NCBI GenBank assembly: GCA_963755705.1
Contig: CAVWKW010000003.1
Location: forward strand, 836,067-900,066
Length of the DNA stretch: 64,000 nt
Direction of reading: 5' to 3'
Source: an uncultured delta proteobacterium
GTDB taxonomy: Bacteria; Desulfobacterota; Binatia; Binatales; Binataceae
Part shown: piece after piece, positions 23,213 to 41,857 of the stretch
Layout: each line of letters opens with the position of its first letter
How positions within the stretch are numbered: position 1 is the stretch's first letter
Position numbers and translations under genes: made by a program
Notes under the pieces: model-generated
Seen by the model: the letters and a program-made list of their open reading frames with translations, nothing else
Database searches by the model: none
What the model was told of the DNA's origin: nothing

Positions 23213-23303
23213 GATCTTACCGGCAGCATTTGCGCGCGGCGCGAGGCTCGCGCTTCTTCCGCCAGCCTCGTGACGCCCGGACGAGGATGCTGCTGCAAAG
23301 AAA

Positions 23304-23448
23304 CACAGGCTAAAGCCTGTGCCACCTAAGAAAATGCTCGCTGCGCCCAACATCGGCAGAGCCTGCCAGCATGAGAAAGTTCGCAAGCCAGAAGGCACGA
23401 CTCCTCAGAAATTTGACTTGTTTTAAGTGGCACAGGCTTCAGCCTGTG
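23304..23448. repeat. inverted REP doublet (REPIN-like)
   Basis: cacaggctaaagcctgtgccac (23304-23325) and gtggcacaggcttcagcctgtg (23427-23448) are reverse complements at 21/22; each is an 8-bp hairpin with a GTGG tetranucleotide. Confidence 0.75.
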
Positions 23449-23519
23449 TCTTCCGCTCTCGACCCGTGCGCAGTTCTCGCGGATGGCAAGCACTTAAAAT
23501 CGGAAAATCGCAGGAGAGT

Positions 23520-23971: not shown

Positions 23972-24010
23972 CAAAAAAACAAGGCTGAACTGTTCAGCCT
24001 TGTTTTTTTG
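23972..24010. repeat. perfect 39-bp palindrome with A7/T7 tails
   Basis: caaaaaaacaaggctgaac-t-gttcagccttgtttttttg (19-bp arms). Confidence 0.9.
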
Positions 24011-24860: not shown

Positions 24861-24909
24861 TGGAGGCGGCGATCGGATTCGAACCGATGCATGGAGGTTT
24901 TGCAGACCT
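24861..24909 (-). repeat. att site: 49-bp copy of the tRNA-Cys 3' end
   Basis: Identical to 41782-41830; spans the anticodon arm to CCA; identity breaks at both flanks. Confidence 0.97.
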
Positions 24910-24972: not shown

Positions 24973-26166
24973 TCACCCTTTCTGCTCTCTACTGCTCGGA
25001 ACTGCAGCCTGCTCGATCATAGTTTGATCATAGTCGCGCGCACGGCTTATCGGTGTGACCTTGGAGCGCTTGGCCTGCTTGCCCATATACTTTGCGAGAC
25101 GATCCATCGCGTCGATCAAGTCGTCGTCAGCCGTTATGTTGTAGCGATCCAGCATGGAGCGAGTTTTGTGGCCGCTTATCTCCATCGCGACGGTGTCACT
25201 TACTCCTGCGCGCTTGAGATTGCGCACTCCCGTGCGGCGCAGGTCGTAGGGCAGGATGCCTTTGACTCCGCCGACCAGCCCGACCTCAGAACAAGCCTTG
25301 ATCCATGCCGTATTGTACGAAGCGATGGGCCTCGGCTCCGTGCCTTCGCCATTTCTGATCTTGAAGTGATAGAAAACGTTCGGACAGTCCGGTCTTCGCC
25401 GCGCTAGAGCGCGCTCGATGATTTCCCAAAGCTCTCCAACCAGCGGAAGGCGCCTAGGTTCGCGGTTCTTGCTGCTGCGACGCGGCAGAAGGAGCACTCG
25501 GTTCTCAATATCGATTGAGCTCCAAAGCATTCCGAGGACCTCCCTTGGCCGCCAAGGCACGAGCGACATAAATGTGATTGGATCCTTAAGGCGCTCGGGA
25601 AGGCGCGAACGGATAGCAAGAAAGGTCGCTTGATCTATAAAGCCCTCACGAATCCCGTCGCTGAGATCGAATTGCCGCGGAAAAGCGGGAACATTCGCCG
25701 ACGAGAGTTCACCGTTCTCCACCGCAAGGTTGAACATACGTTTGAGGATCGAGACTTCGTGATTGACGCTAGCCTTCGCCGCTCCTTCGGCCAGCCGGTC
25801 GCGTCGGTAGCGCACAATCTGGCTGGTCATGATCTCGATGGCTCGAAGATCTCCGAAAGCTGGCCGCAGGTGGAGAAGGCGAACACTGAGCGCCTTCATG
25901 TGCTGGTTGTTAACGCGATAGTCGCTCTCGATTGCGGACGCCATCTCGTCGAACGTCAACCGTTCTGCGCGCGTTCCAATATAGCTCGCGCCACCGACCC
26001 TGGCCTTGGCAAATTGCTCCAAGAGAACCTTCATCGCCTTTTTCTCGTCGGGCGTGTGCGCGGTTCGGCGTACGGGCTTACCGCGATGAGCAAACTGGAT
26101 GAACCAGTTCTCCGATCCAGGCTGTTTGTAGATACTGCCGACTCCCCTAATTGTCTTCCTTTCCAT
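24973..26166 (-). CDS. tyrosine recombinase/integrase
   Basis: N-terminal arm-binding-like GVGSIYK..W.IQF; catalytic R (WRPRE), K (SSKN), YDLRR, SGHKT, RY; SD CAGGAG before ATG 26166. Confidence 0.93.
   Translation of the reverse strand: MERKTIRGVGSIYKQPGSENWFIQFAHRGKPVRRTAHTPDEKKAMKVLLEQFAKARVGGASYIGTRAERLTFDEMASAIESDYRVNNQHMKALSVRLLHLRPAFGDLRAIEIMTSQIVRYRRDRLAEGAAKASVNHEVSILKRMFNLAVENGELSSANVPAFPRQFDLSDGIREGFIDQATFLAIRSRLPERLKDPITFMSLVPWRPREVLGMLWSSIDIENRVLLLPRRSSKNREPRRLPLVGELWEIIERALARRRPDCPNVFYHFKIRNGEGTEPRPIASYNTAWIKACSEVGLVGGVKGILPYDLRRTGVRNLKRAGVSDTVAMEISGHKTRSMLDRYNITADDDLIDAMDRLAKYMGKQAKRSKVTPISRARDYDQTMIEQAAVPSSREQKG
25013..25036 (+). repeat. tandem 11-bp repeat pair, putative Int arm-type site
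   Basis: tcgatcatagtttgatcatagtcg, 23/24 identical to 41691-41714. Confidence 0.7.
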
Positions 26167-26545
26167 TCGGCGCTCTCCTGATCGTATCTCGCAGTCTCTT
26201 TTCGTTGTATCTTTGAATGCCTTCAAGTTCGAAGAGGGTTCTGCCTCCAATGTGGACGACGAACGGCAATTCCCGGACACGGTGCCATATCCATGACTGC
26301 GAGACGCCCAATATTCTAGCAGCGGTCTTGGCGTCAACGTTCCGAACCCTCGTCGGATCGTTGTCGTGTGGCACGGCGGCGCTCGACACTGCTGCGCTCG
26401 GCGCTTCTACGCTTTCAACACGATCATCGAGGGCAGCCAGCGCGACGCGCGCCTGTAAACGCAGATCGCGCGCTCTTTGCGGCGCGAGTTCACGCACCAG
26501 TTCCGGGCGCCGAGCTACTGCATCGAGAGAAAGGTCAAACTCCAT
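26147..26545 (-). CDS. excisionase-like HTH protein
   Basis: VDAKTAARILGVSQSWIWHR..LPF...IGGRTLF (HTH_17/Xis pattern); overlaps the int start. Confidence 0.75.
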   Translation of the reverse strand: MEFDLSLDAVARRPELVRELAPQRARDLRLQARVALAALDDRVESVEAPSAAVSSAAVPHDNDPTRVRNVDAKTAARILGVSQSWIWHRVRELPFVVHIGGRTLFELEGIQRYNEKRLRDTIRRAPNGKEDN

Positions 26546-26614: not shown

Positions 26615-26624
26615 GCTACATAGC
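26615..26624. promoter_or_regulatory. operator-like palindrome GCTA-CA-TAGC upstream of xis-int
   Basis: Extends to AGCTA-CA-TAGCT in an AT-rich intergenic region; same 10-mer at 32771 and 33840. Confidence 0.7.
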
Positions 26625-27022
26625 TAACACAAAAAGAATTTCAATGCAAGAGAAAACGAGCGGCACGGAAACAACGGTTCGCCGCGGAGTCCCTTCGCTG
26701 TCTCCCGCCCGCGTCCCGGAGGGAAGGGCGCTCCGATGCTTGTTTGAGTGCGCAGCATTGAAAGCGCCGCCCTCTCAACCGAGTCTGGAGGGCGGCGCAA
26801 GATTCCGGGATGCGCGTGGCGGAGCGTAGCAACCGTGCCGGACGCTGCGTTCGGCGCGGTTGCCCGCGGAGCGCGCGCCACCATTACAGCGGCGCGCAGC
26901 GGAGCGCGAGCGGCGCGATGCGCCGCGTGGCCTCGCGGCGAAGCTTGCGCAGCCCGAGCGTCCGCGCTCACAGCGCAACGCCGATGAAAAAATGTTTCGA
27001 CGGCAAGGTTGGGCAAGACCAG

Positions 27023-29755
27023 TCACCTTCTGATGCCGTGGGCAGGGGTGATGTTCCGGCGCGGCGGTTCTGGAACGATCTTGATGTCTCTTCGCTCGTT
27101 CAGGTTGAGGCGTTCCAGGGCAATCGACTTTTCGCGGTTGCGCCCCACAGCTGAGTCGAGTCTGGCACGGTCGTCGGTGTACAAGCTCATCGCATGCCGA
27201 GCCCGGCTGATCGAGACGTAAAACTGTTTGCGGTTTACGAGTTCAGCCGAGCGAGCGGTATCGATATTAGCGATCACGCGATCAACCGTGGACCCCTGGC
27301 TGGAATGCGAAGTCGAGGCGTAACCGTAGTCGATGTGCTTCAGACGATCGATTGCCGCGCTGATCTCGCGCCCGTTGTCGCTGCGCAGGCGAGCTTTGTG
27401 ATCGTCGATTGCGACGACTGTCGCAAACTCTCCATTGGCGACACCGAGCGCACGATCCGGCGCGCGGAATTGAATCCGGTCGCCCGCTCCGAGAACGCGA
27501 CGCTCCTGATGGAAGACCTCGACTCCGGATAGGCGCGAAGGATCGTAGCTGACAGCTTTTCCGCTTTCATACCGCACCACCATTTGGTTCCGTTCCGGGG
27601 TGATTGCTTCGATCCGGGCATAACTTCCGCGGTCGATGCCCAGCCGCGCACTTCCCCGCCGGAATCGGAGCACGTCGTCAACTTCGTAACTCTGCGCTCG
27701 TTTGCGCTGAGGGCGGGTCAGAACGCGGTTTACAAGCACGATCTGTTCTCGTCTATCGGAGCCGATGTGTCCGCGTTCCTTGAAGGCTGCGCGAATGGCG
27801 GCGTTCAACTGGCGGCGCTCGTCGTTGGCAGGGCTGACGACGAGCACCTTTTCACCTGCCTCGTGCGCGCCAAGATATTCGCGCGCAATCGCCGCGTGGC
27901 GCTCATTCGGATCGACAATCTCGCGGATGCGACCCTGCTGCTCGAGGAGTGCGATTGCGCCTCCAATCTCTCCGCGCGAAGCGAGCGTGACCGCTTCACG
28001 CAGTCCGGGATCGAGTTGGCGACGAATAGTCTCCAATCGCGCGATGGGCATGCCCGCTTGCTGCATCTGCTGGATGGGCCGGCCAGCCTCGATGGCGTGG
28101 TGCTGGCGCTGGTCGCCGACGAAGACGACCCGACCGACTTCGGCCTCTCGCGCCTTGTGCAGCAGCGCGTTCATCTGGCGAGTGCCGAGCAGGCTCGACT
28201 CATCGATGATCCACAACTCTTTGGCTGCGCGATCAGGAAGCGGGCCGGCGAGCAGGCTCGCCACGGTCCGGGATTCGATTCCGGCTTCGGAAAGCGCCTT
28301 TACGGCGCGCGTGGTCGGAGCGAAACCGCGTACCGCGTAGCCAGCGCTCTCAGCGAAGTCGTTGAGCGCTCCGACCGTGGTAGTCTTCGCCGCGCCCGCG
28401 CGCCCTTCGATCGAGGTAAGCCAATCGGTGGCAGTCAGCGTCAGCACCGCCGCCTGAGCCTGCTCGGCGGATAGCGAGCGCGCGGCTGCCCAACTGCGCG
28501 CGTCTGGTTCAGTGGCGATTGCGTCGGAATGCCCTCTGCTAGCGCGCATGAGTTCGAGATTCTCGCGCTCAAGCACCACCATCTCCGGGGTGGTGAAAAC
28601 GACTCCCGGAAACGAAGGGGAAACAGCAAGGGCGATTAGATCGCCACGTGATTCCCGAATACCGGTCTCGCACCGCACGCCTTCCAGGTCGGCGATTCCC
28701 ATGGCGTACTGAAGAGCGGTGCGCTCCAGAGCGCGCCGGTCAGTGACGGCTTCGCGTTCGGTGTTGTGAGCTACGCTGAATCTGACCGCTTCCTCGATCC
28801 CAGCCGGAGAGACTGTCCGCGAGGGTCCGCGTGCGAGCGCGTGTTCCGAAATCTCGGCGAGCGCGATTCGATTGTCATGGGCGCGCGCCTGCCACTCCGC
28901 GCGAAGCTGGTTTTCGTCACGCTTTTCTTTGGCACGCCGGCTCTGATGGGCGGCGATCTGGGCCGCTGCCGCTCCGGTTGAGTTTTGGCGGGAAAGAAGT
29001 GCTTCGATGTCCTGGCGTCTACGCGAAAACGCCATTACCTGTTCGCGCGTATATCCTTGTAGCTCCCAGCGTCCGTCGGACGCGGTAAGGCTGATTCGAT
29101 ATCCAAGCGCTTGGACTTCGCGGGCGAGTTCCGAGCGATAAACCGCAGTCGCAAGGCTCTGGCTGCGATAGATCTCTATCGGGTCCAGGCTCCGCCACAT
29201 GCCGTCTGGCCGCAGCGTCATGTTGGCGATTACGACGTGGGTGTGGAGGTGAGGGTCAGGGCCGTAGCCGTCGTGGGTCCCAGTCTCCGAAGGTCGCGCC
29301 GCGATGTGCTCGAAGCGGGCCGCAACGAAATTGCCGGTGGTAACCCACTCCTGTCCGCGATGTCGGCGCGCTTGGGCGAACTGTTCAAGTTCCGAAAGCG
29401 CTCGCTCGACCGCGCGCCGATGCGCCTCTACCAGCCGCGCATCTTCGCCAACCAGCGCCTGGATACTGACTGACTTCGGCGCATTAAACGTCGCGTCCCA
29501 ACCTGCGCGGCGGTCGTCACGGCCAGCGGCAGCACTGACCAGGACTTCGCCGCTACCGGGTCTGGTTCCGCGCAGCACGGCCCGAAAATCTTCCTCGCTG
29601 ACTGCGCCGCTCAGCCCGAGGATCTCGGCGGCTCTTCCATACCATTCGCCGGTGACGCGGTGCGATTCGGTATAGTAGTCGTCCTCGGAGTATTTCTCCT
29701 GATAGTAGGTCTCGGCTTGGCCTACACTAAGCGCGCCTTTCGACATTACCAGCAT
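27023..29755 (-). CDS. MOB-F (TrwC/TraI-like) relaxase-helicase
   Basis: N-terminal YY…DDYY, D.TF.APKSVS, PHLHTH (HUH), helicase GRAGAAKTT / IIDESS / GDQRQH / YASTSHSSQG.TVD. Confidence 0.93.
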   Translation of the reverse strand: MLVMSKGALSVGQAETYYQEKYSEDDYYTESHRVTGEWYGRAAEILGLSGAVSEEDFRAVLRGTRPGSGEVLVSAAAGRDDRRAGWDATFNAPKSVSIQALVGEDARLVEAHRRAVERALSELEQFAQARRHRGQEWVTTGNFVAARFEHIAARPSETGTHDGYGPDPHLHTHVVIANMTLRPDGMWRSLDPIEIYRSQSLATAVYRSELAREVQALGYRISLTASDGRWELQGYTREQVMAFSRRRQDIEALLSRQNSTGAAAAQIAAHQSRRAKEKRDENQLRAEWQARAHDNRIALAEISEHALARGPSRTVSPAGIEEAVRFSVAHNTEREAVTDRRALERTALQYAMGIADLEGVRCETGIRESRGDLIALAVSPSFPGVVFTTPEMVVLERENLELMRASRGHSDAIATEPDARSWAAARSLSAEQAQAAVLTLTATDWLTSIEGRAGAAKTTTVGALNDFAESAGYAVRGFAPTTRAVKALSEAGIESRTVASLLAGPLPDRAAKELWIIDESSLLGTRQMNALLHKAREAEVGRVVFVGDQRQHHAIEAGRPIQQMQQAGMPIARLETIRRQLDPGLREAVTLASRGEIGGAIALLEQQGRIREIVDPNERHAAIAREYLGAHEAGEKVLVVSPANDERRQLNAAIRAAFKERGHIGSDRREQIVLVNRVLTRPQRKRAQSYEVDDVLRFRRGSARLGIDRGSYARIEAITPERNQMVVRYESGKAVSYDPSRLSGVEVFHQERRVLGAGDRIQFRAPDRALGVANGEFATVVAIDDHKARLRSDNGREISAAIDRLKHIDYGYASTSHSSQGSTVDRVIANIDTARSAELVNRKQFYVSISRARHAMSLYTDDRARLDSAVGRNREKSIALERLNLNERRDIKIVPEPPRRNITPAHGIRR

Positions 29756-29758
29756 GGC

Positions 29759-31552
29759 TCAGATCCGTTTCCTGCGTGTGCTCGCCGCTGCGGGACCAAG
29801 CGCGATCACCTGCGATCGCCGCGCTGGCTTCACCAGCGCGGGCAGATTGACGCGCGGGATGAAACCTTCCTGCCGGACTTGGGGCGCGAGATAGTCGAAG
29901 CGCACGAACGAGCGGTGATGACCGGTGACGCAGAGGTAGCCCGACAGCGGCTGGAGCAGCTGCATCTCGGCGGGCATCACCGCCGGTTCCGTCGTTCGCT
30001 GTTCGCGGATACCGAACGAGTATTGCTCCCGATGACTCGCGTTGGCGCTCAGGTGGCCGCGCTCAACCTCGCGCTCGCCGATCTGCGCGCTGCACCACTG
30101 GGCCGTTTCAGGCTCTCCGGTTCTGAGAATCAGCTTGGTGGCGGGCGAGGCGACCAAGGTGGCGGCCTGGTTGACGCCGTAGATGGTCCGCAGTTGCGTA
30201 ATAGCCTGAAAGCCGAGCACGACCGCCAGCCCGCGCTTGCGGCCGCGGACGACCAGATCCTCGAGCTTCGCTTGCCGTCTCAACACCGGAAGCTCGTCTG
30301 CAACGATCCAGACCTGTTCCTGTCTGCGCGGCCCAAGTTCCCGGCTCAGCAGCCGGTGGATGATGCAATCCAGCCAAACGCTCTGCAACTGCAGTGCTGC
30401 GTCTTTGGATTCTTCGGACGAGGTCAGGAACAGCCAGCCCTGTCGCTTCGCCGACCATTCCAATGCGCTCCAACTTCGCGGCGCGTTCTCGGGCAGGAAG
30501 TGAAAGGCCTTGGTCGCGTTGGCGGCGGTGGCGACGATGCCGGCGCCCTGCTCGTGCGCTCCGGGATCGATCAGCGCTTCGGCTGGCGTCCCGATAAGCG
30601 CCCGTCTGAGTTCGGCGCGCGGCAGCGTGAGCAGGCGCGGGATCGACGACGCTTCCCTGGGCTCGGCTATTCGGAAGATGCTGGTCAGCAGCGTCCGGCT
30701 GCTCTGACGGAAAAAGAAGCTCGCCCCGCCCTCGTGATACGCGTCCGGTGGGTCAGGGAGGAGCGAGGCGGCCAGCGCCTCGCAGTCGGCGTCGTGACTT
30801 TCATCGCGAAGCTCGCGCCACGGTGACCAGCGCGGGCAACGGGCATCGAGCGGATTGAGGATGAAGTCGCCGCGCCCGGGTTGATAGAACTCGGAGACGA
30901 ACTCGCACTCCGGGTCAACCACGACCGCGGTTTCACCGCGCTCCTCTATCTGCCGAAGCAGCGAACGTATGGCGACCGACTTGCCGGACCCAGTCGAGCC
31001 GGTGACGAGAAAGTGTTGGCACTCAAGCGCGCGCGGTATGCGAACGCCGGCGAGCCGAATGCCAGCGCGGCCGACCAGCTTGCGGGCGAGTTTGCGTGCT
31101 GGAACCAGAGTGATGCCGCGAATATGTCTGGCTTCGCAAGGAGCGCTGCGCACAAAGAGAATTGTCACGGCGGCGGCTTCGATCAGACCGGTCAGCGCCG
31201 CTCCCCATGGTGCGTAGTGCCAGTACCACGCAGCGAATGAGCCGCCGAGATAATACTTGTAATTGAGAAAGGCGTACATGCTGGCGATGGTGTAGCGCCC
31301 GCCGCGATAGAGGAGCGATGCGAAGGTCAGCGGAATCTCCTGGGTCAGGAACCACGCCAGAAACCAGCGGATGAAGTAGCGATGTGCGGCCGGACCGCCG
31401 TAATGCCCGCTCCAGTGCCAGACCAGGCAGATGGTCATCTCGATCCAGAGCGCCGCGGTCAGGAGGACGTAACGCAGCGCCTCTCTGAGTCTGAACTCCA
31501 GCGAAGCATAAAGGGCGTGTTCGTGGATTGCCTGACGAATGATGGGCGTCAT
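29759..31552 (-). CDS. type IV coupling protein (TrwB/TraD-like)
   Basis: N-terminal TM segments, Walker A GSTGSGKS, VVVDP..EF, Walker B IVADELP, LGFQ...QL..IYG. Confidence 0.9.
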   Translation of the reverse strand: MTPIIRQAIHEHALYASLEFRLREALRYVLLTAALWIEMTICLVWHWSGHYGGPAAHRYFIRWFLAWFLTQEIPLTFASLLYRGGRYTIASMYAFLNYKYYLGGSFAAWYWHYAPWGAALTGLIEAAAVTILFVRSAPCEARHIRGITLVPARKLARKLVGRAGIRLAGVRIPRALECQHFLVTGSTGSGKSVAIRSLLRQIEERGETAVVVDPECEFVSEFYQPGRGDFILNPLDARCPRWSPWRELRDESHDADCEALAASLLPDPPDAYHEGGASFFFRQSSRTLLTSIFRIAEPREASSIPRLLTLPRAELRRALIGTPAEALIDPGAHEQGAGIVATAANATKAFHFLPENAPRSWSALEWSAKRQGWLFLTSSEESKDAALQLQSVWLDCIIHRLLSRELGPRRQEQVWIVADELPVLRRQAKLEDLVVRGRKRGLAVVLGFQAITQLRTIYGVNQAATLVASPATKLILRTGEPETAQWCSAQIGEREVERGHLSANASHREQYSFGIREQRTTEPAVMPAEMQLLQPLSGYLCVTGHHRSFVRFDYLAPQVRQEGFIPRVNLPALVKPARRSQVIALGPAAASTRRKRI

Positions 31553-31893
31553 GACGGTATCTCCTTGCTCTTCAGCACCTGTGCGACGTGCTCCTTGGCG
31601 GTCTGTTCGGCGGAGTCGATGATCTCGTCGACCACCTCCGCTCCCAGCGTGTGGTCCAGCGAATGCAAGATGACGGAGCGGGTCTTGGCGACCTCGAAGA
31701 TGAGCTGCGCGTACTCATCCAAGGATTGGATTTTTGTCTGAGGCTCCATCGCTGACGGAGCGGCGCCGAGGTAGCGCGCAGCGAGAATTTTGCGAATCAG
31801 ATCGCTTTCGGTCACGCTTCGGCGGCGCGCTTCGGCCGCAAGCTGATCGGCGATTTCTTCCGGGACTCGGGTTGAGATCGATCGGGAGTTCAT
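31549..31893 (-). CDS. ribbon-helix-helix relaxosome accessory protein (TrwA-like position)
   Basis: SISTRVPEEIADQLAAEARRRSVTESDLIRKIL; first gene of an RHH-T4CP-relaxase operon. Confidence 0.75.
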   Translation of the reverse strand: MNSRSISTRVPEEIADQLAAEARRRSVTESDLIRKILAARYLGAAPSAMEPQTKIQSLDEYAQLIFEVAKTRSVILHSLDHTLGAEVVDEIIDSAEQTAKEHVAQVLKSKEIPS

Positions 31894-32069
31894 GTGTGGT
31901 TCTCCAAAGTCTGCTGTAGACGGGTGTTTACACTGATTTGGCGAGGACTTAGACCGCTTCGCACCTCTTCCTGTAGACAGCGTCTACCCAATGTTTTCGG
32001 GTACTTGCACGAATCGCGTTCATCCAGGCGATGAGTGACGTGTCAATTCCCAAACACGTGCGAAGCACG
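31894..32069. other. candidate oriT
   Basis: Intergenic region upstream of RHH-T4CP-relaxase; CTGTAGAC repeated at 31914 and 31971; hairpin GTAGAC-agc-GTCTAC at 31973-31987. Confidence 0.45.
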
Positions 32070-32369
32070 TCAGCCGACCTTCCGCTGATGGCAATCACGA
32101 TTCGCCCTTGGCGCTGCCGTTGGATGAAGACTGGAGCGGAGACACGGCGTGACTGGCTGTTCAGGAGAGCGCGCCCACAAATGGAACTCACGATCAGCTT
32201 GGCCGAAGGCACTGAGAATCTCCGGAATCAGCGCCTTCAAGTCCACAGCGTTGCCGTGAACGTGCTCGTAGTAGCGCGCGTAACTTTCGAGGTCGGCATT
32301 CAGATCGCCGGCTAGCTTCACGCGTACCTGCAGGAAACGAAGCGGCTTTGCGATGCGTGCGAGTTTCAT
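32070..32369 (-). CDS. DUF2274-like protein
   Basis: MKL…V.L..DL.ADL..YA……V….LIP.IL..F…DREF pattern; SD GGAGGT. Confidence 0.65.
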   Translation of the reverse strand: MKLARIAKPLRFLQVRVKLAGDLNADLESYARYYEHVHGNAVDLKALIPEILSAFGQADREFHLWARSPEQPVTPCLRSSLHPTAAPRANRDCHQRKVG

Positions 32370-32406
32370 ATCGGACCTCCACCAATGCATACTTGGAAAC
32401 GACTGC

Positions 32407-32745
32407 TCAGAAGGGCGCGAGGTAAGTCAGCAAATGGACGGCGATCAGGGCGGCCCAAGCCGCTACTCCGCCAGCCAGCAGGCGCCCTGCTCGTGGGTAG
32501 CTGCCGATCGCGTACAGGATCACTGACAAGGCGAAGTTCAGCATTATTACGGCGTGAGCGACGGGACCTACCAGCATGTCCTGAATCGCGCCCAGCGTCT
32601 GATCCCACGGCATGGCATCAGCGTATTGCGCGGCCCGCGACGGCTGGGCTCGTAGCGCGAACAGGGCGGCGGCGCAGGCGGCGATGAGCCATCTGAGGTT
32701 CAATTTCGGCGCATGGTTTACCGCGGTTGGAGTCATGGGCAACAT
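32407..32745 (-). CDS. TrbC/VirB2-family pilin
   Basis: Signal peptide, then MPWDQTLGAIQDMLVGPVAHAV (TrbC motif) and two hydrophobic helices. Confidence 0.75.
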   Translation of the reverse strand: MLPMTPTAVNHAPKLNLRWLIAACAAALFALRAQPSRAAQYADAMPWDQTLGAIQDMLVGPVAHAVIMLNFALSVILYAIGSYPRAGRLLAGGVAAWAALIAVHLLTYLAPF

Positions 32746-32770
32746 CCGTTCTTGGCTAGGTGACTACTTC

Positions 32771-32819
32771 GCTATGTAGCGAGATATCGGACGAATGTCA
32801 AGCACAAGGATCCGTCCGA
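32771..32819 (-). promoter_or_regulatory. candidate promoter/operator of the pilin-mob unit
   Basis: Minus-strand TTGACA (32796-32801) lies within TCGGACG-N19-CGTCCGA; GCTATGTAGC (32771-32780) lies at the expected -10 position. Confidence 0.6.
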
Positions 32820-32847
32820 ATGAAACGGCCGGGGGCTTGTTGGCGGG

Positions 32848-33513
32848 CTACTCGGTCAGATAGCCGAGCTGGGAGAGCCGCACAGTGGCGGCCTCGACGG
32901 ATACATCGAACGCAAGCGAAATACGCTGGCAGAGCGCTGACGCTTCTGGCGAGCCCTTGGCAACCGGCAGCCGCTCAGAGCGATTCTGCAAATACGCCGC
33001 GACCGCGCGCCGCGCGAAGCTCTCCGGCATCAACAGCGCGCCACCGGCGTAGCCTGCCTGCCATTCCGCCCAGTCAACCACGCGGCTGGTCGGAAGCAAG
33101 TCCTTCCAGTAACAGCGCTGCGGACTGTCAGACACCGCATACTGATCATACAGCCACGTGTGCAGCATCACGTGGCCATATTCGTGGGCCAGTGTCATGC
33201 GCAGGCGATTGCTGCGAGTTCGCTGTTCCCAGAGTTCCCGCGCGATCTTGACGATCGGCTTCCCGCCCCGGTGGAAGAGGGTCACGCCGAAGGTCTGGTA
33301 GGTGTCATCGGACAGGTCCGCAGCAATGTCGAAGTCGGCAGCGTCGCGCTCGATAAGCAGGGTGAAGGCTTCGGTTGGGACTGGAATCCGGTCAAACCCG
33401 TAGCGCTCGCGCAGGAAGGTAGTGATGGTCTGCTCGCTGCGCTCATCCAATTCTGATGACTCCCAGAATGGACGCTTGCGGAAACGCCCGGTCCTGTCCG
33501 GTATCATCTTCAC
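32848..33513 (-). CDS. ImmA/IrrE-family metallopeptidase
   Basis: RLRMTLAHEYGH (HExxH), EWQA..AGG.LLMP, F.VS.EAA..RL. Confidence 0.88.
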   Translation of the reverse strand: MKMIPDRTGRFRKRPFWESSELDERSEQTITTFLRERYGFDRIPVPTEAFTLLIERDAADFDIAADLSDDTYQTFGVTLFHRGGKPIVKIARELWEQRTRSNRLRMTLAHEYGHVMLHTWLYDQYAVSDSPQRCYWKDLLPTSRVVDWAEWQAGYAGGALLMPESFARRAVAAYLQNRSERLPVAKGSPEASALCQRISLAFDVSVEAATVRLSQLGYLTE

Positions 33514-33833
33514 GGTCTTTTCTTGCGCTTTACTTCCCGCCGAAACGCCTTCCAGCCTGCGGCGAGTTCCTGCGCACTGTTAACGGTCGTTGCGCTGAGG
33601 TCGGCGGGAAACCGCCCTGCCAAAAAGTAGAGCACATCCGAATCGATCTTGAGAACCTTTGCGAGTTGTTCAAGGACTTCGTCGGAAGGCTTGCGCCGAT
33701 CGTGTTCAAGGTCAACCAGGAACGGAATCGAGATCGGTTTGCCATCGGAGTTGCGCACTTCCGCCACCACTTCGCGCCCGGCCAGCCCCAGCTCCTTGCG
33801 CCGCTCAACGATAAACTGCCCCAGTGTTTGCAT
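33510..33833 (-). CDS. XRE-family HTH repressor (ImmR-like)
   Basis: LGQFIVERRKELGL…S..FL.DLEHDRRKPS.EVL..LA.VL; ATGA overlap with immA. Confidence 0.85.
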   Translation of the reverse strand: MQTLGQFIVERRKELGLAGREVVAEVRNSDGKPISIPFLVDLEHDRRKPSDEVLEQLAKVLKIDSDVLYFLAGRFPADLSATTVNSAQELAAGWKAFRREVKRKKRP

Positions 33834-33839
33834 AATTGA

Positions 33840-33849
33840 GCTATGTAGC
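33840..33849. promoter_or_regulatory. operator-like palindrome GCTA-TG-TAGC, 7 nt upstream of the repressor ATG
   Basis: Third copy of the 10-mer. Confidence 0.7.
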
Positions 33850-33969
33850 ATATTTGCAAAAGCGCCGTAAGCCTCTGCTTGGCGCCGCCCGGAGCATGAG
33901 TCAACCGCGCGGCGGCGAGTACCGGACTTTTGCTCAGCAGGCCTCAAGTAATACGGCGGGCTGAAGTAT

Positions 33970-35274
33970 CTATCTTCCGAATAGTTCGTTATCGATGACG
34001 CCGGTGTTGAGCTTTTGTGTGCCCGGATCAAGACGCATCGTGAGGAGCAAGTCCGTCCGATCGCCCGGGACGAAAAACTCGTTGGCGAGTTCCATCTCGT
34101 TTCCACCGCCATCGGGCATAGTTCGTACGCTCCAAAGGGGCACTGCGGAATCTTCGAATCCGGGATGCTCTAGATCATAGCCGAGCAGGACGAACGTCTC
34201 GCTGTCAATGTAAATGCGCGCGCGGAGCGGCCGAACCGAGATGAGGCCTAATAAAGAGGATGCCTGTAATTGGACGGGGCTGGCCTCCATGACGTAGGCA
34301 GAGCGCAACTCGAAATTCTCTTGGCCCAGTTCGATCCGATGTCCCGAGCGGATTATCCCCGCCGGCTTCGTTTCGGCATGCAGGCAGGCAAGAACGGATT
34401 GAACTCCGAGTAAGCGAAACTTGTACGCCATCGGTGGCGGAGAAACGTATTCCCACCAGAACTGAGTACATCCGTAGGTACACTGATCTGAGGCGTATAC
34501 CAAGCCGAAAAATGAATTGGACCCGCCTCCGAAGATCCACCAGAGTGCATCACCCCATGAAATATATCCGATCGAACTGCCTGAAACGTCCCACTCGCCG
34601 GGATCCTCAAGGTCGCTCCATGCGATCGAATAGTCCCTGGAGCGGCCGCACTTCATGCCGCGAACTCTCCACTCGAAGGGAATCTTCACGGAGACTCTTG
34701 GAATCGGCTCGACTTTGCTGCGATGCGCGTAGCGTATGAAGATGAGCGTATTGCACGGTCCCTCCGACCGGAAGTCGTCATCATCGTCGCGAGGTATCAG
34801 AGCATTCGACTCGGCGTTGACCGCATAGGCTTGTGAGCGGTTTGAACTAAACAGCATTACGTCATCGGGCACAAACGGACCCCAATGCCAGTTGTACGCC
34901 ACCTTCATCGCTGCGTTCGGATCGTTGACATCAACCAGCGGAAAAGGAAAGCCTGCGACGTAATTATGCACCTCATTCCCGTTGACTAGACGCACTTGAC
35001 CCGAGTACTGCTCGGTAAGTTTTCGAAAGCGAGGCGGCCAGTCAATACGCTCGGTCGGCACGACTGTGGCCCTGAGTCCGTGAGCAATCGCAAATTTCAG
35101 CGCGGCGGGAAGATATTTCGCATACAGGTCAAGGTTGTTGCGATCGACAATTGTGCCGACGCGAGGCGGTTCGGGCGCGTTCGATTGGTAAGGCGTCCCG
35201 GCGCATGCGTTGCGCGCCACGCAGGCCAGCAGAAGCGCGATGGCAACGCCGATGCTCGCACGATTGTGCCCCAT
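33970..35274 (-). CDS. DUF1329-family exported protein (possible lipoprotein)
   Basis: GTIVD..N...Y..YLP…TEQYSGQV…NYVAGFPFP.…DP.AA.K.AYNW matches my recall of DUF1329; signal peptide contains LLLAC. Confidence 0.7.
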   Translation of the reverse strand: MGHNRASIGVAIALLLACVARNACAGTPYQSNAPEPPRVGTIVDRNNLDLYAKYLPAALKFAIAHGLRATVVPTERIDWPPRFRKLTEQYSGQVRLVNGNEVHNYVAGFPFPLVDVNDPNAAMKVAYNWHWGPFVPDDVMLFSSNRSQAYAVNAESNALIPRDDDDDFRSEGPCNTLIFIRYAHRSKVEPIPRVSVKIPFEWRVRGMKCGRSRDYSIAWSDLEDPGEWDVSGSSIGYISWGDALWWIFGGGSNSFFGLVYASDQCTYGCTQFWWEYVSPPPMAYKFRLLGVQSVLACLHAETKPAGIIRSGHRIELGQENFELRSAYVMEASPVQLQASSLLGLISVRPLRARIYIDSETFVLLGYDLEHPGFEDSAVPLWSVRTMPDGGGNEMELANEFFVPGDRTDLLLTMRLDPGTQKLNTGVIDNELFGR

Positions 35275-35411
35275 TCGCTATTCTCCGTTCACGCCGGTCT
35301 TGCACGAAGGCGTGGCCTCAAAGCCCGGCAATACAGGGCGCGCCGATGTCTCGCGATCTAGATACCATATACCATGAGAGCGGCTCCCAAGAGGATCAAC
35401 CGGATGGAACT

Positions 35412-38400
35412 TCAAGGAGACGGTGCTACAGGCACGCAAGGCCACGACCCACCGCCGAACCATGAACAGAAGGAGCCCGATGAAAGGGTCAAGGTATCTT
35501 CGGGCGACCCGCACGTATTAGTGCATGGATTTCCGGATCCAAGGGCCGTTGGCATCGAACCCACCACCAATCTCTGCGTTGTTTGAGGTGTCGGTGTCGT
35601 GATGTCAGCCGTATCCAGATTCACCGGGAGCCCGCCATACTGGGCGAGACCTCCAAGACCATAAAGCGATACATTCCGCTGCGCCATCAGCTCTGAACTA
35701 ACATAGAGAGAAAATGTTAAGCCGCCGCCAATGGTAAAGCTTCCTCCTCCCTTGCCGTTCCCCTTTCCCTTCATCCCGAACTGCCCTGACGGTGGGGCAG
35801 GGCCACCCCCACCACCACCGCCGCCGCCACAGCCGGCGCTGAATAGTCCTAGCGGATCGGAGAAGTTGGTGGGGCTGTCGAAGGAGTAGGCGAAAAGATT
35901 GGCTTGGCCGCCGACGAAGCCGATCGGATCGGGTGAGAGGAAGCGCCCGAGGAGCGGATTGTAGTAGCGCGCGCGAAGATCGTAGAGCCCGCTGGGATCG
36001 GATTCGCGCCCGAGATATTGAAATGGATTCGCCACCGTCGGTCCGCCCATTGCTGGCGACGCTCCATACGGACCGTATTGGTATTGAACGGCGAACGCGC
36101 CGCTGGAATTCACCAGCCCCGCGACCGATCCGGGCGCCTCGGCGAGCATCGCGTAGATCTGGCCCGATTCGGAGAGTGAAAAATACCCGTCGAGGTTAAG
36201 CCCCGGTATCATATCCACCGTGCCCCCTGAAGTCTCTTGCTGCGCGACGTTGAGACCATCATAGACATACTGGGTGGTCGCACCGTTGTTCAGCAGCCCG
36301 ACACGGCGTCCCTCGGCATCATAGGTGAAGCTGCTTTGCACGCCACTTGTCGTCGAGGCGAGTTGATTGCGTTCGTTCCATGCATAGGTTGCGGATAGCG
36401 ACGGATCGAACGTCAGGTTGCCATTCCCGTCGGTCGTCGCTGGAGTGGTGTTCCAAGTGGCGAGCTGATTGCCGGCATCGTAGGTCGCCGTCATAGCGTA
36501 GGGCATATTGACAGTAGCCAGCGTCCCACCGAAGCTGTTTACTCGTCCATCCTGATCGTAACCATAGGTCAGGTTGCCCAGGTTGCCGCCGCCGGTACTG
36601 CTGTAGTTGATCGAGGTCGGATGCGAATCCGCATCGTAGCCGTAGCTGATCGTGACACTATTGGGCTGAGTGATGGTCTCCGGCCTTCCGTCAGCATCGT
36701 ACACGAAGCCAACCGCCTGCGTTCCGCGAGTCTCCGAAATGAGGTTGTCGTCATTATCATAGCTGTAGGCCGTCTGTGCCTGATTGCTCGCAGTCATCGT
36801 TTGGCGCCGCTGCGCGAGATCATAGGTATAGCTGACACCTGCATTGAGGGTCGCGGACACATACGAGGTAGTCAACGGATCATCGAGCCCGTCGTAGGTC
36901 GCCGTCAGCGTGTCGCCCGCGCTGCCGGTGCCGCTGTCGTGAGCGCTGGTCAAGCGATTTCCACCGTCGTAAACGTAAGCGGTCTGGGTCTGATTATATC
37001 CCGCTGTTTTGCTGGTATTATATTGCGCGGTGATCAAGCGGCTAAGCCCGTCGTAGGTGAACTGATCGGTCAACGAGCGACCATCGGTTATACTGGTAAC
37101 GTTTCCGAGTGGGTCCATATCAGCCGTTTCACACCGATTGGCGCCATCGCAGCGCTGGACCGTATTATACTGGTAGTTGCGGCTGTAGATTAATTGATGG
37201 CCGTTCGCGTCAGTGACGGTGACCAGATTTCCCAGCGGGTCGTAAGCGAGTTGTGTAACCGCGCCGGTCGCATCAGTCATTTTGGTCACACGATTCATCG
37301 CGTCGTACACAAACGACGAGGTCTTCTGCAACGCGTCTTCGACCGAGGTCAGGCGACCCACCGTGTCATAGCCGAGAGTGAATACCGCGCTCAGCGGATC
37401 GGTGACCATCTGCAAGTCTCGCGACGAATCGTAGGCAAAGCTGGTCGTGTTCTGGAGCGCATCGGTCAAGGTTAGCATCTGCCCCGCCGAATTATAGGTT
37501 GCCCTCACTGTATTCCCCAGCGGATCGGTTCGGGTCGTCGCGTTGCCGTAGCCATCGATAGAAATGCTGGTTTTGTGGCCGAGCGGATCGGTCACGCTGG
37601 TTAGCTGGCTGAAGCTTGGATCGTACGTGTAAGAAGTGGTCGCTGCCTGCGGTGTCCCGGACAGTTGAGTAATGGAGAGGATGTTTCCGTAGGAACCATA
37701 GACGTAAGTAGTGGTCCGTCCGAGCTGATCGGTAACGGATGTAACCTCACTGGTATTTGCATCAACAACATATTGTGTAACCTGCTGTTCAGGTTCTCCT
37801 TCCGCCTGAGTGTCCTCGGTGATGTAGTCGTTGCCGTTGAAATTCAATTCGCGAACATAATTTCGGGGATCCGTGATTTTAGCCCAAGCAGCAGGGCCGT
37901 TTCCCTGCATCCCAGATGGGTACTGGTAGCTGTAGTTTCCAAGCACTCCAGTCGTTGATGTTAGGCGATGAACGCTGCTGTAGCTGATAGCGCCAGTCGC
38001 CGCGACCTGATATTCCACGATTCCGGTCATATCCGCCTTGGTTCCCGTCCAATCAAAGGTGGTCCACGCGCCATCCGCATTATAGAAAGAAGTCATCTGG
38101 GCGTCTGAATTATAAGCATAAATTACGGTTCGCCCCGCGCTATCGACAGCCTGTGTAATTTGGCCCGGATTGCTCGATTCGGTGTAGTAGAGGTTGATGT
38201 AACGGCCATCGGTATCCGTGATCTCGGTTGGGTTGCCAGACGAATTTCTGACGACATTGACCTGGTTTCCATAGCGATCAGTAATCGAGGCCAGTGCTGC
38301 ACCGTTTGGAAAATAGAAAGTCTCGCCATCCTTGCGGCGCACATTCCACCCCGGTTCCGAAGAATTATACGATACCACGGCAGCGAAGAAGCTCCCGGGA

Positions 38401-38894
38401 TTGTTCGTGCATTGAAACACTGCATCGGTATAGTCGGTACAGTTGTTTTTGCTACAGGATGAGGTCCGGGCACAATTAAACTGCGCCCCGTCGGGCATCA
38501 CGATCTGCATGTTCGTGTAGTTGCCGTTGTTCACGTAGCTCTGTGAGAACAACTGGAGATCATAGTTCGAGGTCATCCCGACCCCGAAATCGAACGTGAT
38601 CGTATTACCGGCGCCGTCCACCTCCTGGGAACGATAGGTGCGCGTGAGCACAAGCGGGATTGGCCCCGGCAGAGTGAGATCGGTCGTCGAGAATTCATAG
38701 TAACCGCGCGCCAGTGCGGTTAGCGGCTCCTCCGGATTAGGTCCGTTGGCGGGAATCATGGCTTCGCCGCCGAAGATGTCGGTCAGGGGTTGGATTGTAG
38801 TCAGTTGCGGCTGAGCCATTCTTGGCCAGATCGCGAAACCGGCCACCAGCAGTAGGATAACCGAGAACCATCGAAAAGGGTGAACGAGCTTCAT
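35412..38894 (-). CDS. Sec-exported Rhs/YD-repeat protein with DUF6531-like N-terminus and Rhs core
   Basis: Signal peptide; TDL.LPGPIPL..TRTY.S; many YD repeats; core YQYLGRE.D.SGLY…ARYY.P.LGRFLSPDPIG…N.FAY…P…SDPLGL. Confidence 0.92.
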   Translation of the reverse strand: MKLVHPFRWFSVILLLVAGFAIWPRMAQPQLTTIQPLTDIFGGEAMIPANGPNPEEPLTALARGYYEFSTTDLTLPGPIPLVLTRTYRSQEVDGAGNTITFDFGVGMTSNYDLQLFSQSYVNNGNYTNMQIVMPDGAQFNCARTSSCSKNNCTDYTDAVFQCTNNPGSFFAAVVSYNSSEPGWNVRRKDGETFYFPNGAALASITDRYGNQVNVVRNSSGNPTEITDTDGRYINLYYTESSNPGQITQAVDSAGRTVIYAYNSDAQMTSFYNADGAWTTFDWTGTKADMTGIVEYQVAATGAISYSSVHRLTSTTGVLGNYSYQYPSGMQGNGPAAWAKITDPRNYVRELNFNGNDYITEDTQAEGEPEQQVTQYVVDANTSEVTSVTDQLGRTTTYVYGSYGNILSITQLSGTPQAATTSYTYDPSFSQLTSVTDPLGHKTSISIDGYGNATTRTDPLGNTVRATYNSAGQMLTLTDALQNTTSFAYDSSRDLQMVTDPLSAVFTLGYDTVGRLTSVEDALQKTSSFVYDAMNRVTKMTDATGAVTQLAYDPLGNLVTVTDANGHQLIYSRNYQYNTVQRCDGANRCETADMDPLGNVTSITDGRSLTDQFTYDGLSRLITAQYNTSKTAGYNQTQTAYVYDGGNRLTSAHDSGTGSAGDTLTATYDGLDDPLTTSYVSATLNAGVSYTYDLAQRRQTMTASNQAQTAYSYDNDDNLISETRGTQAVGFVYDADGRPETITQPNSVTISYGYDADSHPTSINYSSTGGGNLGNLTYGYDQDGRVNSFGGTLATVNMPYAMTATYDAGNQLATWNTTPATTDGNGNLTFDPSLSATYAWNERNQLASTTSGVQSSFTYDAEGRRVGLLNNGATTQYVYDGLNVAQQETSGGTVDMIPGLNLDGYFSLSESGQIYAMLAEAPGSVAGLVNSSGAFAVQYQYGPYGASPAMGGPTVANPFQYLGRESDPSGLYDLRARYYNPLLGRFLSPDPIGFVGGQANLFAYSFDSPTNFSDPLGLFSAGCGGGGGGGGGPAPPSGQFGMKGKGNGKGGGSFTIGGGLTFSLYVSSELMAQRNVSLYGLGGLAQYGGLPVNLDTADITTPTPQTTQRLVVGSMPTALGSGNPCTNTCGSPEDTLTLSSGSFCSWFGGGSWPCVPVAPSP

Positions 38895-39421
38895 CGGCCG
38901 CCCTCCTCTCGATCCGCCAGCGTGTTGACTGTGAGTATCCGGCCGCCGCGAATATCGCGATTCTCAATCTTCGCGGTTCGCTTTGTATTTGTGACCGTCG
39001 GAGAGGTTGAGACTAGCGCTGTGTCGGCTAATTCGATCGGAAAGCCGAACACCCCGCTTGCCCTTCCGTATAGCTCCGCCGCTGCGTAGCTGCTTGGCGC
39101 GGTGGAGAGGGAAGGTTGGGCATTGCCCTGCGGCGGATTGGTTATTGTAATAGATAGCAGATTTCCTACCGGATCGTACGAATAGGTGGCTGTTGTTCCC
39201 GATGGGTTCGTGACCGAAGTCAGACGCCCCGCAGGGTCGTACGCATAGGTGATATTCTGCGCAACGGCGAGCGACCCACTGGCGAGCACGATCATGGTCG
39301 TTAGCGCCAGCAGGAGAGCGAATCTGGCGAAAGCATCATGTGCGATCGCCAGACGCTCTTGAAACCGTTGTTTTCTTTGCACTGCGCGACGGTTACAAAG
39401 CTGGCTGTTCGATGAGGCCAT
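38891..39421 (-). CDS. small exported protein with two YD repeats
   Basis: SD GGAGGGAG before ATG 39421; hydrophobic signal …SLAVA, then ITYAYDPAGRLTSVT and YSYDPVGNLLSIT; ATGA overlap with rhs. Confidence 0.7.
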   Translation of the reverse strand: MASSNSQLCNRRAVQRKQRFQERLAIAHDAFARFALLLALTTMIVLASGSLAVAQNITYAYDPAGRLTSVTNPSGTTATYSYDPVGNLLSITITNPPQGNAQPSLSTAPSSYAAAELYGRASGVFGFPIELADTALVSTSPTVTNTKRTAKIENRDIRGGRILTVNTLADREEGGR

Positions 39422-39605
39422 GGCTCCCTCCCATTTACAGACCATCGTCGCTGCGAGCTGCCGCTTCGGCGCGCATGTTCGGAAATGCACTTTGCGGCGC
39501 ACTGTTGCTCGCTATTGCACTTCTGCTCTCGTACCGCTAGAGCATCTGAAAGTCAAGCGCGCCCACATACCGTGAAATAGAGGGTCGGCATAACGGCTAA
39601 GAGTC

Positions 39606-41690: not shown

Positions 41691-41714
41691 TCGATCATAG
41701 TTCGATCATAGTCG
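41691..41714 (+). repeat. tandem 11-bp repeat pair, putative Int arm-type site
   Basis: tcgatcatagttcgatcatagtcg, 67 bp inside the tRNA-side att. Confidence 0.7.
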
Positions 41715-41781: not shown

Positions 41782-41857
41782 TGGAGGCGGCGATCGGATT
41801 CGAACCGATGCATGGAGGTTTTGCAGACCTCTCCCTTAACCACTTGGGTACGCCGCC
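41782..41857 (-). tRNA. tRNA-Cys (GCA)
   Basis: 76-nt cloverleaf: GGCGGCG/CGCCGCC acceptor stem, GAGGT-CTGCAAA-ACCTC anticodon arm, TTCGAAT T-loop, encoded CCA. Confidence 0.97.

Follow-up and report, generated by a model that had tools for sequence, protein, structure and literature searches.

A repeated palindrome as the predicted operator of the XRE repressor in a mobilizable element of uncultured Binatota

Can a 10-bp palindrome that recurs between the genes of a mobile element be assigned to a binding protein, and if so, to which one? The question is raised by a 64,000-nucleotide (nt) stretch of DNA from an uncultured delta proteobacterium of the family Binataceae (GenBank assembly GCA_963755705.1, contig CAVWKW010000003.1, positions 836,067 to 900,066), hereafter "the window," which carries an integrative and mobilizable element (IME) of 16.9 kb. 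This element encodes a small XRE-family protein and, beside it, an ImmA-type metallopeptidase, and a preliminary description of the sequence had proposed that the palindrome is the binding site of the former. Our answer agrees: judging from the window and its relatives, the XRE repressor of the element quite probably has GCTA-NN-TAGC as its operator. The motif is specific to the element, is conserved in the manner of a dimer site, lies on the predicted -10 region of three promoters, and follows the xre gene.

In the window, GCTATGTAGC or its reverse complement occurs three times. These copies, and the genes of the proposed regulatory pair, are as follows:

26615 to 26624, GCTACATAGC on the plus strand: core palindrome O1, upstream of xis-int
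32771 to 32780, no strand assigned: core palindrome O2, between immA and a pilin-like gene
33840 to 33849, no strand assigned: core palindrome O3, 6 nt upstream of the ATG of the XRE gene (33833)
33510 to 33833, minus strand: XRE-family repressor gene (107 aa), the proposed binder
32848 to 33513, minus strand: immA, an ImmA/IrrE-type M78 metallopeptidase gene (221 aa, HEYGH) whose start overlaps the xre stop (GTGA)

All three copies are intergenic and within the element, and the scan returned the coordinates that had been read by eye, with none elsewhere. Two figures in the preliminary description need correction: the gap between O3 and the XRE ATG had been given as 7 nt, and the chance expectation, put there at approximately 0.1 copies in 64 kb, is 0.03 by dinucleotide-preserving shuffles, 0 of 100 of which gave three copies. 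The degenerate form GCTANNTAGC finds the identical three sites and no further ones in the window (0.23 expected). Neither form has a copy in the window's 47 kb of host DNA. If one arm mismatch is allowed, seven sites are added, which is below the approximately 21 expected from mononucleotide shuffles. None of the seven lies in intergenic DNA of the element, and additional degenerate operators within the window were rejected on that basis.

How far does this arrangement extend beyond one genome? A protein collection yielded 134 XRE homologues; an alignment of 20 was used to scan species-representative genomes (43 loci), and a metagenome scan added 80 loci. The species-representative loci come nearly all from Candidatus Binataceae or from soil metagenome-assembled genomes (MAGs) named "uncultured delta proteobacterium," phylum Binatota. 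Motif counts were pooled over 97 related XRE loci, approximately 900 kb, from Candidatus Binataceae MAGs and soil metagenomes. Wherever the XRE is close (69–98% identical), GCTA-NN-TAGC is found at the same three places, which we call P3, P2, and P1 after the promoters predicted there. The P3 site lies 14–20 nt before the XRE ATG; the P2 site lies approximately 1,050 nt downstream of it, between immA and the pilin-like gene, and the P1 site approximately 7,200–7,300 nt downstream of it, between the relaxase gene and xis. Exact matches number 174, all but two at these promoter positions (172 in total; P3 89, P2 60, P1 22–23), and the two elsewhere are close to the chance rate. Together with its absence from the host DNA of the window, this means that the motif is not frequent.

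Among non-redundant sequences, the information profile is maximal at the eight arm positions and near zero in the flanks, except for the -35 hexamer. The central NN is free, taking at least eight values (AG, TG, TA, GA, AA, CA, CG, GG, TT, and TC are listed). Invariant arms, a free center, and scrambled flanks are, as far as an alignment can tell, the pattern of a dimer binding site. Since the synonymous divergence is substantial (relative to the window, 21–29% of conserved XRE codons and 31–38% of conserved ImmA codons carry synonymous changes), the elements are truly diverged and the conservation of the motif does not reflect recent common descent. Recent gene conversion as the source of the XRE conservation was likewise rejected, given the divergence within xre. 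Searches of IMG/VR returned no phage relatives, a literature search for the 10-mers returned unrelated primer or eukaryotic matches only, and another returned no paper linking Binatota to integrative and conjugative elements (ICEs) or IMEs.

What does the position of the palindrome say about its role? The candidate promoter features of the window are these:

26639 to 26644, minus strand: candidate -35 of P1, TTGAAA, with a 14-nt gap to the palindrome, read from the sequence
32796 to 32801, minus strand: -35 hexamer of P2, a perfect TTGACA 15 nt from O2, with hexamer and spacing kept in relatives
33865 to 33870, minus strand: -35 hexamer of P3, TTACGG, weak, 15 nt from O3
32745 to 32766, minus strand: conserved box 3' of O2, consensus GAgtTAGTca..tAGCca, in the window GAAGTAGTCACCTAGCCA

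In the relatives, all three promoter classes consist of a -35 hexamer, 15–16 nt, and then the palindrome, the hexamer being a perfect TTGACA for P1 and P2 and weak for P3 (family consensus TTaCGn or TTcCGn, equally far from the palindrome). At each of the three promoters, the center of the palindrome is predicted to be the -10 hexamer (TAnnTA). At P2 it would be TACATA, at the center of O2, in line with the earlier remark that this copy lies at the -10 position of a perfect TTGACA. With its flanks (32769–32782), O2 is a perfect 14-bp palindrome, TCGCTA-CA-TAGCGA, which reads TC-GCTACATAGC-GA on the minus strand and lies 34 nt upstream of the conserved ATG of the pilin-like gene (32736). Similarly, O1 and its flanks form the 14-bp palindrome TAGCTA-NN-TAGCTA (minus strand TA-GCTATGTAGC-TA), 69 nt upstream of the xis ATG (26545, minus strand). 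The minus strand at O3 reads TTACGG, 15 nt, GCTACATAGC, 6 nt, ATG.

A palindrome at a fixed distance from the -35 hexamer and on the predicted -10 is placed where a repressor would act, and its place 5–10 nt before the XRE start is, on positional grounds, a hallmark of autoregulation. That gap, which holds among relatives, is too short for a Shine-Dalgarno sequence; since it leaves no ribosome-binding site, the xre messenger RNA (mRNA) is predicted to be leaderless.

Additional half-sites accompany two of the three palindromes. The box 3' of O2 holds extra TAGY half-sites 8 and 16 nt past the right arm (information profile and alignment), giving at P2 the pattern GCTA-NN-TAGC-N4-TAGT-N4-TAGC with 8-nt spacing. 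At P3 the auxiliary half-site is GCT, 8 nt upstream of the palindrome and the mirror image of that at P2, and the flanks at P1 show TA only. The mirrored placement, downstream at P2 and upstream at P3, agrees better with a protein site than with a feature of the transcript and suggests binding beyond one dimer. The half-sites may reflect cooperative binding of a second dimer or may be features of the transcription start.

Which protein, then, does the motif follow? The candidate DNA binders in the element are XRE, a ribbon-helix-helix (RHH) protein, Xis, and perhaps a DUF2274 protein. XRE is 95–98% identical across elements in which ImmA is approximately 74%, the RHH protein approximately 80% or 30% (depending on which of two backbone variants is compared), the coupling protein 56–90%, and the relaxase 64–88% identical; it is by far the most conserved protein, and its gene is the sole DNA-binding gene that always adjoins a site. 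Because only 2–5% of its residues change despite the synonymous change noted above, XRE is, by these comparisons, under strong purifying selection. Its adjacency to immA is kept in all full-length related loci. As an observation in its own right, the adjacent ImmA differs from relatives at 24–26% of residues, so that there is a sharp step in selective constraint over the 4-nt gene overlap.

The genes behind the P1 site, in turn, are always those for an HTH_17 protein and a tyrosine integrase, and the integrases belong to at least six lineages, 20–30% identical to one another, all preceded by the palindrome. The transfer RNA (tRNA) genes neighboring these integrases are Cys, SeC, Asn, Glu, and Val. 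One locus that has no coupling protein or relaxase (L033) carries the palindrome directly before xis. P3 sites are kept in loci without transfer genes (L009, L021, and L089–L094), and in such xre-immA loci immA is followed by TTGACA and then a degenerate copy of the palindrome with the left arm intact. Where XRE is frameshifted (L029), the motif has decayed to GCTCTATGGC.

These observations bear directly on the alternative that the palindrome is bound not by XRE but by another protein of the element, be it the TrwA-like RHH protein, the HTH_17 excisionase, or the DUF2274 protein. RHH proteins recognize short repeats set close together, and TrwA of plasmid R388 represses its own operon; the 6-bp half-site spacing of the palindrome and the TAGY repeats spaced by 8 bp at P2 would suit such a protein. 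However, the RHH proteins of the two backbone variants, approximately 30% identical, face identical operators, the xis genes have been swapped among at least six lineages, and the P3 sites of the loci without transfer genes have no RHH, DUF2274, or xis gene within reach. We therefore judge this alternative very unlikely. Because of the RHH divergence, the xis-int swaps, the loci without transfer genes, and the decay in L029, the motif follows XRE and no other gene.

A second alternative needs no dedicated repressor: the palindrome would merely be the -10 region of strong promoters for the host RNA polymerase, conserved for promoter strength. It lies exactly where a -10 belongs relative to the conserved TTGACA, and in some GC-rich bacteria, for example Caulobacter, the -10 consensus starts with GCTA. 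Against this, conservation is symmetric about a free center and covers more than a hexamer (G and C at positions 1–2 and 9–10), and neither the 47 kb of host DNA in the window nor the host flanks of approximately 100 loci contain the motif. In addition, there is no such box upstream of the tRNA-Cys gene into which the element is inserted, the mirrored auxiliary half-sites of P2 and P3 make no sense for RNA polymerase, and P3 has the same box with a weak -35. We give this explanation hardly any credence. The least probable of all is that a host factor (a nucleoid protein or a chromosomal Binataceae regulator) silences the element while XRE and ImmA have other targets. Nearly all instances do come from one bacterial family, which leaves some room for a conserved host factor, but host DNA has no copies of the palindrome, the XRE start invariably has the site beside it at a constant 5–10 nt, and the motif decays where XRE is a pseudogene.

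What kind of protein is the preferred binder, XRE? It matches Pfam HTH_3 (E=3.8e-4), and a profile search of the PDB finds DdrO (E=4.7e-4) and a phage immunity repressor. Its AlphaFold2 model (predicted local distance difference test 89) comprises five helices (recognition helix at residues 36–43), a loop at 72–86, and a C-terminal helix at 87–104. Foldseek places the N-terminal domain of the model with that of DdrO (root-mean-square deviation, rmsd, 1.5 A; 34% identity), and also with the ImmR DNA-binding domain (7t8i), P22 c2 (rmsd 1.0 A), SinR, and 434. On the strength of the model, XRE is a five-helix helix-turn-helix (HTH) protein of the DdrO/ImmR kind with an N-terminal domain of the XRE/cI type. 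The neighboring ImmA matches PF06114 Peptidase_M78 (25.0 bits against a cut-off of 22), and its translation contains LAHEYGHVMLH; the stop of xre and the start of immA overlap in GTGA at 33510–33513, and we infer that the two genes are co-transcribed and translationally coupled. An NCBIfam scan added nothing specific. The earlier assignment to an ImmR/ImmA-type pair is borne out by a DdrO/ImmR-like HTH protein beside an M78 peptidase with HEYGH.

Several findings weigh against XRE as the reader of the palindrome, or against the promoters as drawn. The HTH_3 score of XRE is 20.9 bits, under the 23-bit gathering cut-off. Operators of 434, P22, SinR, and DdrO span 14–17 bp, and the half-site centers of the palindrome, 6 bp apart, are set more tightly than in these. 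At P1, the -35 spacing in the window is non-canonical, an alternative -35 (TTGCAT, 26644–26649) leaving a 19-nt gap, and the relatives show cTTGAC(A) 15–16 nt from the palindrome. A simple sigma-70 scan reports no promoter at any of the three sites, since it insists on a final T (position 6) in the -10 hexamer, which the embedded TAnnTA does not offer; the promoter assignment rests instead on the conserved -35 hexamer and fixed spacing.

The use of covariation between recognition helix and operator to identify the binder gave a mixed outcome and also counts among these points. Covariation is weak, the motif-bearing XREs being approximately one clade (helix ISIP[FY]LVDLE). XREs that are 51–53% identical and have the helix ISATYLNYLE are without the motif, as are the distant XREs overall (38–53%) except that of L040, and three XRE/ImmA pairs (L039, L041, and L043; 38–43% identical, helix IGLAYINDIE) have the palindrome (C)CGCAT-NN-ATGCG(G) in the same layout, once per locus and approximately 70 nt before the XRE start. 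But L040, from a Verrucomicrobiae MAG, keeps the GCTA-NN-TAGC core with an XRE 44% identical and the helix ISPQYLNDIE: its 18-bp palindrome ATACGCTACTTAGCGTAT (9965–9982), which is perfect, comes 14 nt after a TTGACA and has the ATG directly behind it, the same leaderless layout in another phylum.

Among the relatives, three loci (L104, L106, and L117) have an XRE with the same helix (59–61% identical) in second place in a tandem pair. This second gene has no palindrome in front of it, and the DNA directly before it codes for the C-terminal AAYxAFKREL motif of a further XRE paralogue.

If XRE is the binder, how might the element be controlled? We infer that XRE binds the palindromes, that binding represses, that ImmA cleaves XRE, and that P3 serves xre-immA, P1 serves xis-int, and P2 serves the pilin-like and DUF2274 genes, its transcript probably reading through the following spacer into the genes for the RHH protein, the coupling protein, and the relaxase. 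In the integrated state, an XRE dimer on each operator would block RNA polymerase, keeping the synthesis of XRE low and the genes for excision and DNA processing silent; P3 would provide negative autoregulation, P2 the silencing of transfer, and P1 the silencing of excision. A signal would then activate the co-transcribed HEXXH metalloprotease ImmA, which by analogy with ImmA/ImmR and IrrE/DdrO would cleave XRE, the predicted cut falling in the loop before the C-terminal helix, with loss of dimerisation. All three promoters would open, Xis and Int would excise the element at its 49-bp attachment (att) repeat, and the relaxase and coupling protein would deliver it through the type IV secretion system of a helper. 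The preliminary description spoke of a complete switch; the promoters for autoregulation, excision, and mobilisation are indeed tied together by the palindrome, but "complete" overstates the case, as no sensor gene or inducing signal is evident.

What else does the element carry? Its boundaries and remaining features are as follows:

24861 to 24909, no strand assigned: att repeat at the distal end, matching the 3' 49 nt of tRNA-Cys exactly (repeat search, 100% identity)
24973 to 26337, minus strand: tyrosine integrase (Pfam Phage_integrase and Int_N)
26147 to 26545, minus strand: excisionase-like HTH_17 protein, xis (weak Pfam HTH_17 match; ATG at 26545, GGAG 8 nt upstream)
26761 to 26798, minus strand: terminator-like hairpin between the relaxase gene and P1 (11-bp GC stem, then UUUCAAU)
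27023 to 29755, minus strand: TrwC-type (MOBF) relaxase-helicase (PF08751, E=2.5e-84, and AAA_30)
29759 to 31552, minus strand: TrwB/TraD-type type IV coupling protein (PF10412, E=1.8e-88)
31549 to 31893, minus strand: ribbon-helix-helix protein in the TrwA position (weak Pfam RHH_1/CopG matches)
31894 to 32069, minus strand: conserved non-coding spacer between the DUF2274 and RHH genes, aligned with five relatives; candidate origin of transfer (oriT)
32070 to 32390, minus strand: DUF2274 protein (Pfam PF10038, E=3.3e-11)
32407 to 32745, minus strand: TrbC/VirB2-like small protein, the first gene after P2 (PF04956, 28.6 bits)
41782 to 41857, minus strand: tRNA-Cys gene (ARAGORN, Rfam), whose 3' 49 nt (41782–41830) are the second att repeat

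The element is thus inserted in tRNA-Cys and bounded by an exact 49-nt direct repeat, 16,921 nt apart. The tRNA was the sole match in the Rfam scan, with no known RNA element at the palindrome sites. All backbone genes lie on the minus strand, and the order of transcription is the RHS cargo and Lnt (plus strand), xre, immA, the TrbC/VirB2-like gene, DUF2274, the 176-nt spacer, RHH, coupling protein, relaxase, hairpin, xis, and integrase; a DUF1329-like gene completes the set inside the repeats. No homologues of VirB4, VirB6, VirB8, VirB9, or VirB10 were found among the genes between the att repeats, and it is because a relaxase and a coupling protein are present without mating-pair-formation genes that we call the element an IME. 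The hairpin 3' of the relaxase gene (RNA fold -33.9 kcal/mol, z = -2.7) speaks for P1 being a unit of its own.

Two start codons probably differ from those of the open reading frames listed. The TrbC/VirB2-like protein probably starts at the ATG at 32736, because that ATG is the conserved one in relatives, and the integrase probably starts near 26170, beside the xis stop, because its tblastn matches begin at approximately residue 60. The former gene had been called a pilin; a TrbC/VirB2 Pfam match does exist, but at 28.6 bits it only just clears the cut-off of 27.9. This protein comes in two very divergent family variants, 35–45% and 75–87% identical. It is an odd gene for a mobilizable element; beyond this protein and DUF2274, the element encodes no type IV secretion component.

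The cargo (33970–39502 and 39606–41291) includes an RHS-repeat protein, apparently split (203 aa + 1160 aa, DUF6531), a 434-aa protein with a weak DUF1329 match, and, on the opposite strand, Lnt (apolipoprotein N-acyltransferase). RHS genes also adjoin XRE in several relatives. The element has one copy of the tandem repeat GACTATGATCRAACTATGATCGA toward either end (25013–25036 and 41691–41714), approximately 100–150 nt inside the att repeats, and these copies may represent arm-type integrase binding sites. Two further features lie outside the element: a 32-nt inverted repeat at 23303–23449 (88% complementary, arms 83 nt apart) and a perfect 19-nt hairpin at 23972–24010, which, flanked by A and T runs, has the look of a bidirectional terminator.

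Is there a fourth promoter? Across relatives, the spacer at 31894–32069 shows much stronger conservation than the promoter regions do, has the inverted repeats CGTGCTTCGCACG and GTAGACGCTGTCTAC, and contains a TTGACA with no palindrome. Its DNA fold, examined for an oriT hairpin, is not significant (z = -1.2), and no nic site was identified in it. The spacer may be an oriT and may also hold a separate TrwA-type relaxosome promoter that lacks the palindrome. Of the claim that one palindrome precedes all three backbone transcription units, the three promoters stand, but the number of units may be an undercount in view of this TTGACA.

What happens when several such elements share a genome? One contig (CAWJET010000001.1) bears three copies of the element (L004, L007, and L019), and other MAGs have two or three (L003/L015, L006/L008, and L017/L026/L033). 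Co-resident copies have XREs approximately 97% identical, identical operators, and integrases of different lineages, with different tRNA neighbors where a flanking tRNA gene was found. Shared XRE and operators imply cross-regulation and speak against effective exclusion mediated by the repressor. The promoter-operator cassettes, approximately 35 bp, sit exactly at module boundaries (cargo|xre, immA|pilin, and relaxase|xis). It is a tentative and rather doubtful proposal that the whole IME family forms one immunity group, in which a shared pool of repressor silences all elements, one activation of ImmA co-induces them, and the cassettes serve as patches of homology for the exchange of integrase and transfer modules. 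Were this true, the strong purifying selection on XRE would follow from the need to match many operators in co-resident elements.

These results amount to a predicted regulatory map, drawn purely from sequence, of a family of mobile elements in Binatota, a soil phylum without cultured representative: one repressor, one protease, and three operator-promoters, the same operator cassette being kept through at least six exchanges of integrase modules and tRNA targets. The consensus (-35 hexamer, 15 nt, GCTA-NN-TAGC) can be used to annotate such elements in metagenomes, together with the boundaries between regulated genes and cargo. In addition, the repressor-operator pair is small (107 aa and 10–14 bp) and suited to characterization in a heterologous host.

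How does this compare with known systems? The mechanism is that of the known COG2856/XRE switch and in this sense conventional; it would place an ImmR/ImmA-type switch on mobilizable, not self-transmissible, elements outside Firmicutes. Less ordinary are the -10 embedded, by prediction, exactly in the operator center at all three promoters, the predicted leaderless mRNA of the repressor, the extreme purifying selection on XRE, and the presence of elements with the same specificity and different integrases in one chromosome.

A close likeness in organization is to ICEBs1 of Bacillus subtilis. There, ImmR represses Pxis and autoregulates (PMC5812530). Both elements are transferable, integrate in a tRNA gene, and pair a repressor of the XRE type with an HEXXH anti-repressor protease that is encoded beside it and co-transcribed, the repressor controlling (here putatively) its own promoter and the promoter for xis and DNA-processing genes. 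Whereas ICEBs1 relies on a single divergent Pxis operon for excision and for all of its conjugation machinery, with int expressed together with immR-immA, the Binataceae element has three co-directional promoters with one operator each, and int lies behind xis under a repressed promoter. It also has no mating-pair-formation genes (an IME, not an ICE), its host belongs to an uncultured phylum, the sequence similarity is at family level only, and no RapI/PhrI-type sensor gene was seen in it.

In DdrO/IrrE of Deinococcus, the IrrE-type protease cuts DdrO between its last two helices, which abolishes dimerisation, and the DdrO target (the radiation/desiccation response motif) is a 17-bp palindrome (PMC6868357). 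DdrO is among the closest solved relatives of XRE, and the recognition helices are alike (ISVPYLSDLE in DdrO, ISIPFLVDLE here), as are the COG2856/M78 protease partner and the palindrome near the start of transcription at several promoters, that of the repressor among them. The differences are that DdrO governs a chromosomal DNA-repair regulon and not a mobile element, that the 17-bp motif contrasts with a 10-bp core here (14 bp with flanks), that the C-terminal domain of DdrO has three helices as against a loop and a single C-terminal helix, and that IrrE has an extra GAF-like domain, in contrast to the 221-aa ImmA.

Similarly, the lambdoid immunity regions of the cI/Cro type (lambda, 434, and P22 c2) share the five-helix HTH repressor fold and have operators overlapping promoter hexamers. 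The lambda cI mRNA from PRM is leaderless, as is predicted for that of xre. In contrast to the lambdoid systems, the element has neither tandem tripartite operators nor a Cro-like antagonist, and a RecA-dependent self-cleaving S24 domain is likewise absent; a separate metalloprotease is predicted to be required for inactivation, and single operators are spread across 7 kb. Finally, the transfer module resembles trwABC of R388 (MOBF) in its order of RHH accessory protein, TrwB-family coupling protein, and TrwC-family relaxase-helicase, with a conserved non-coding candidate oriT upstream; here, however, the module belongs to an integrated element rather than a plasmid and would be placed under an upstream promoter controlled by XRE and ImmA.

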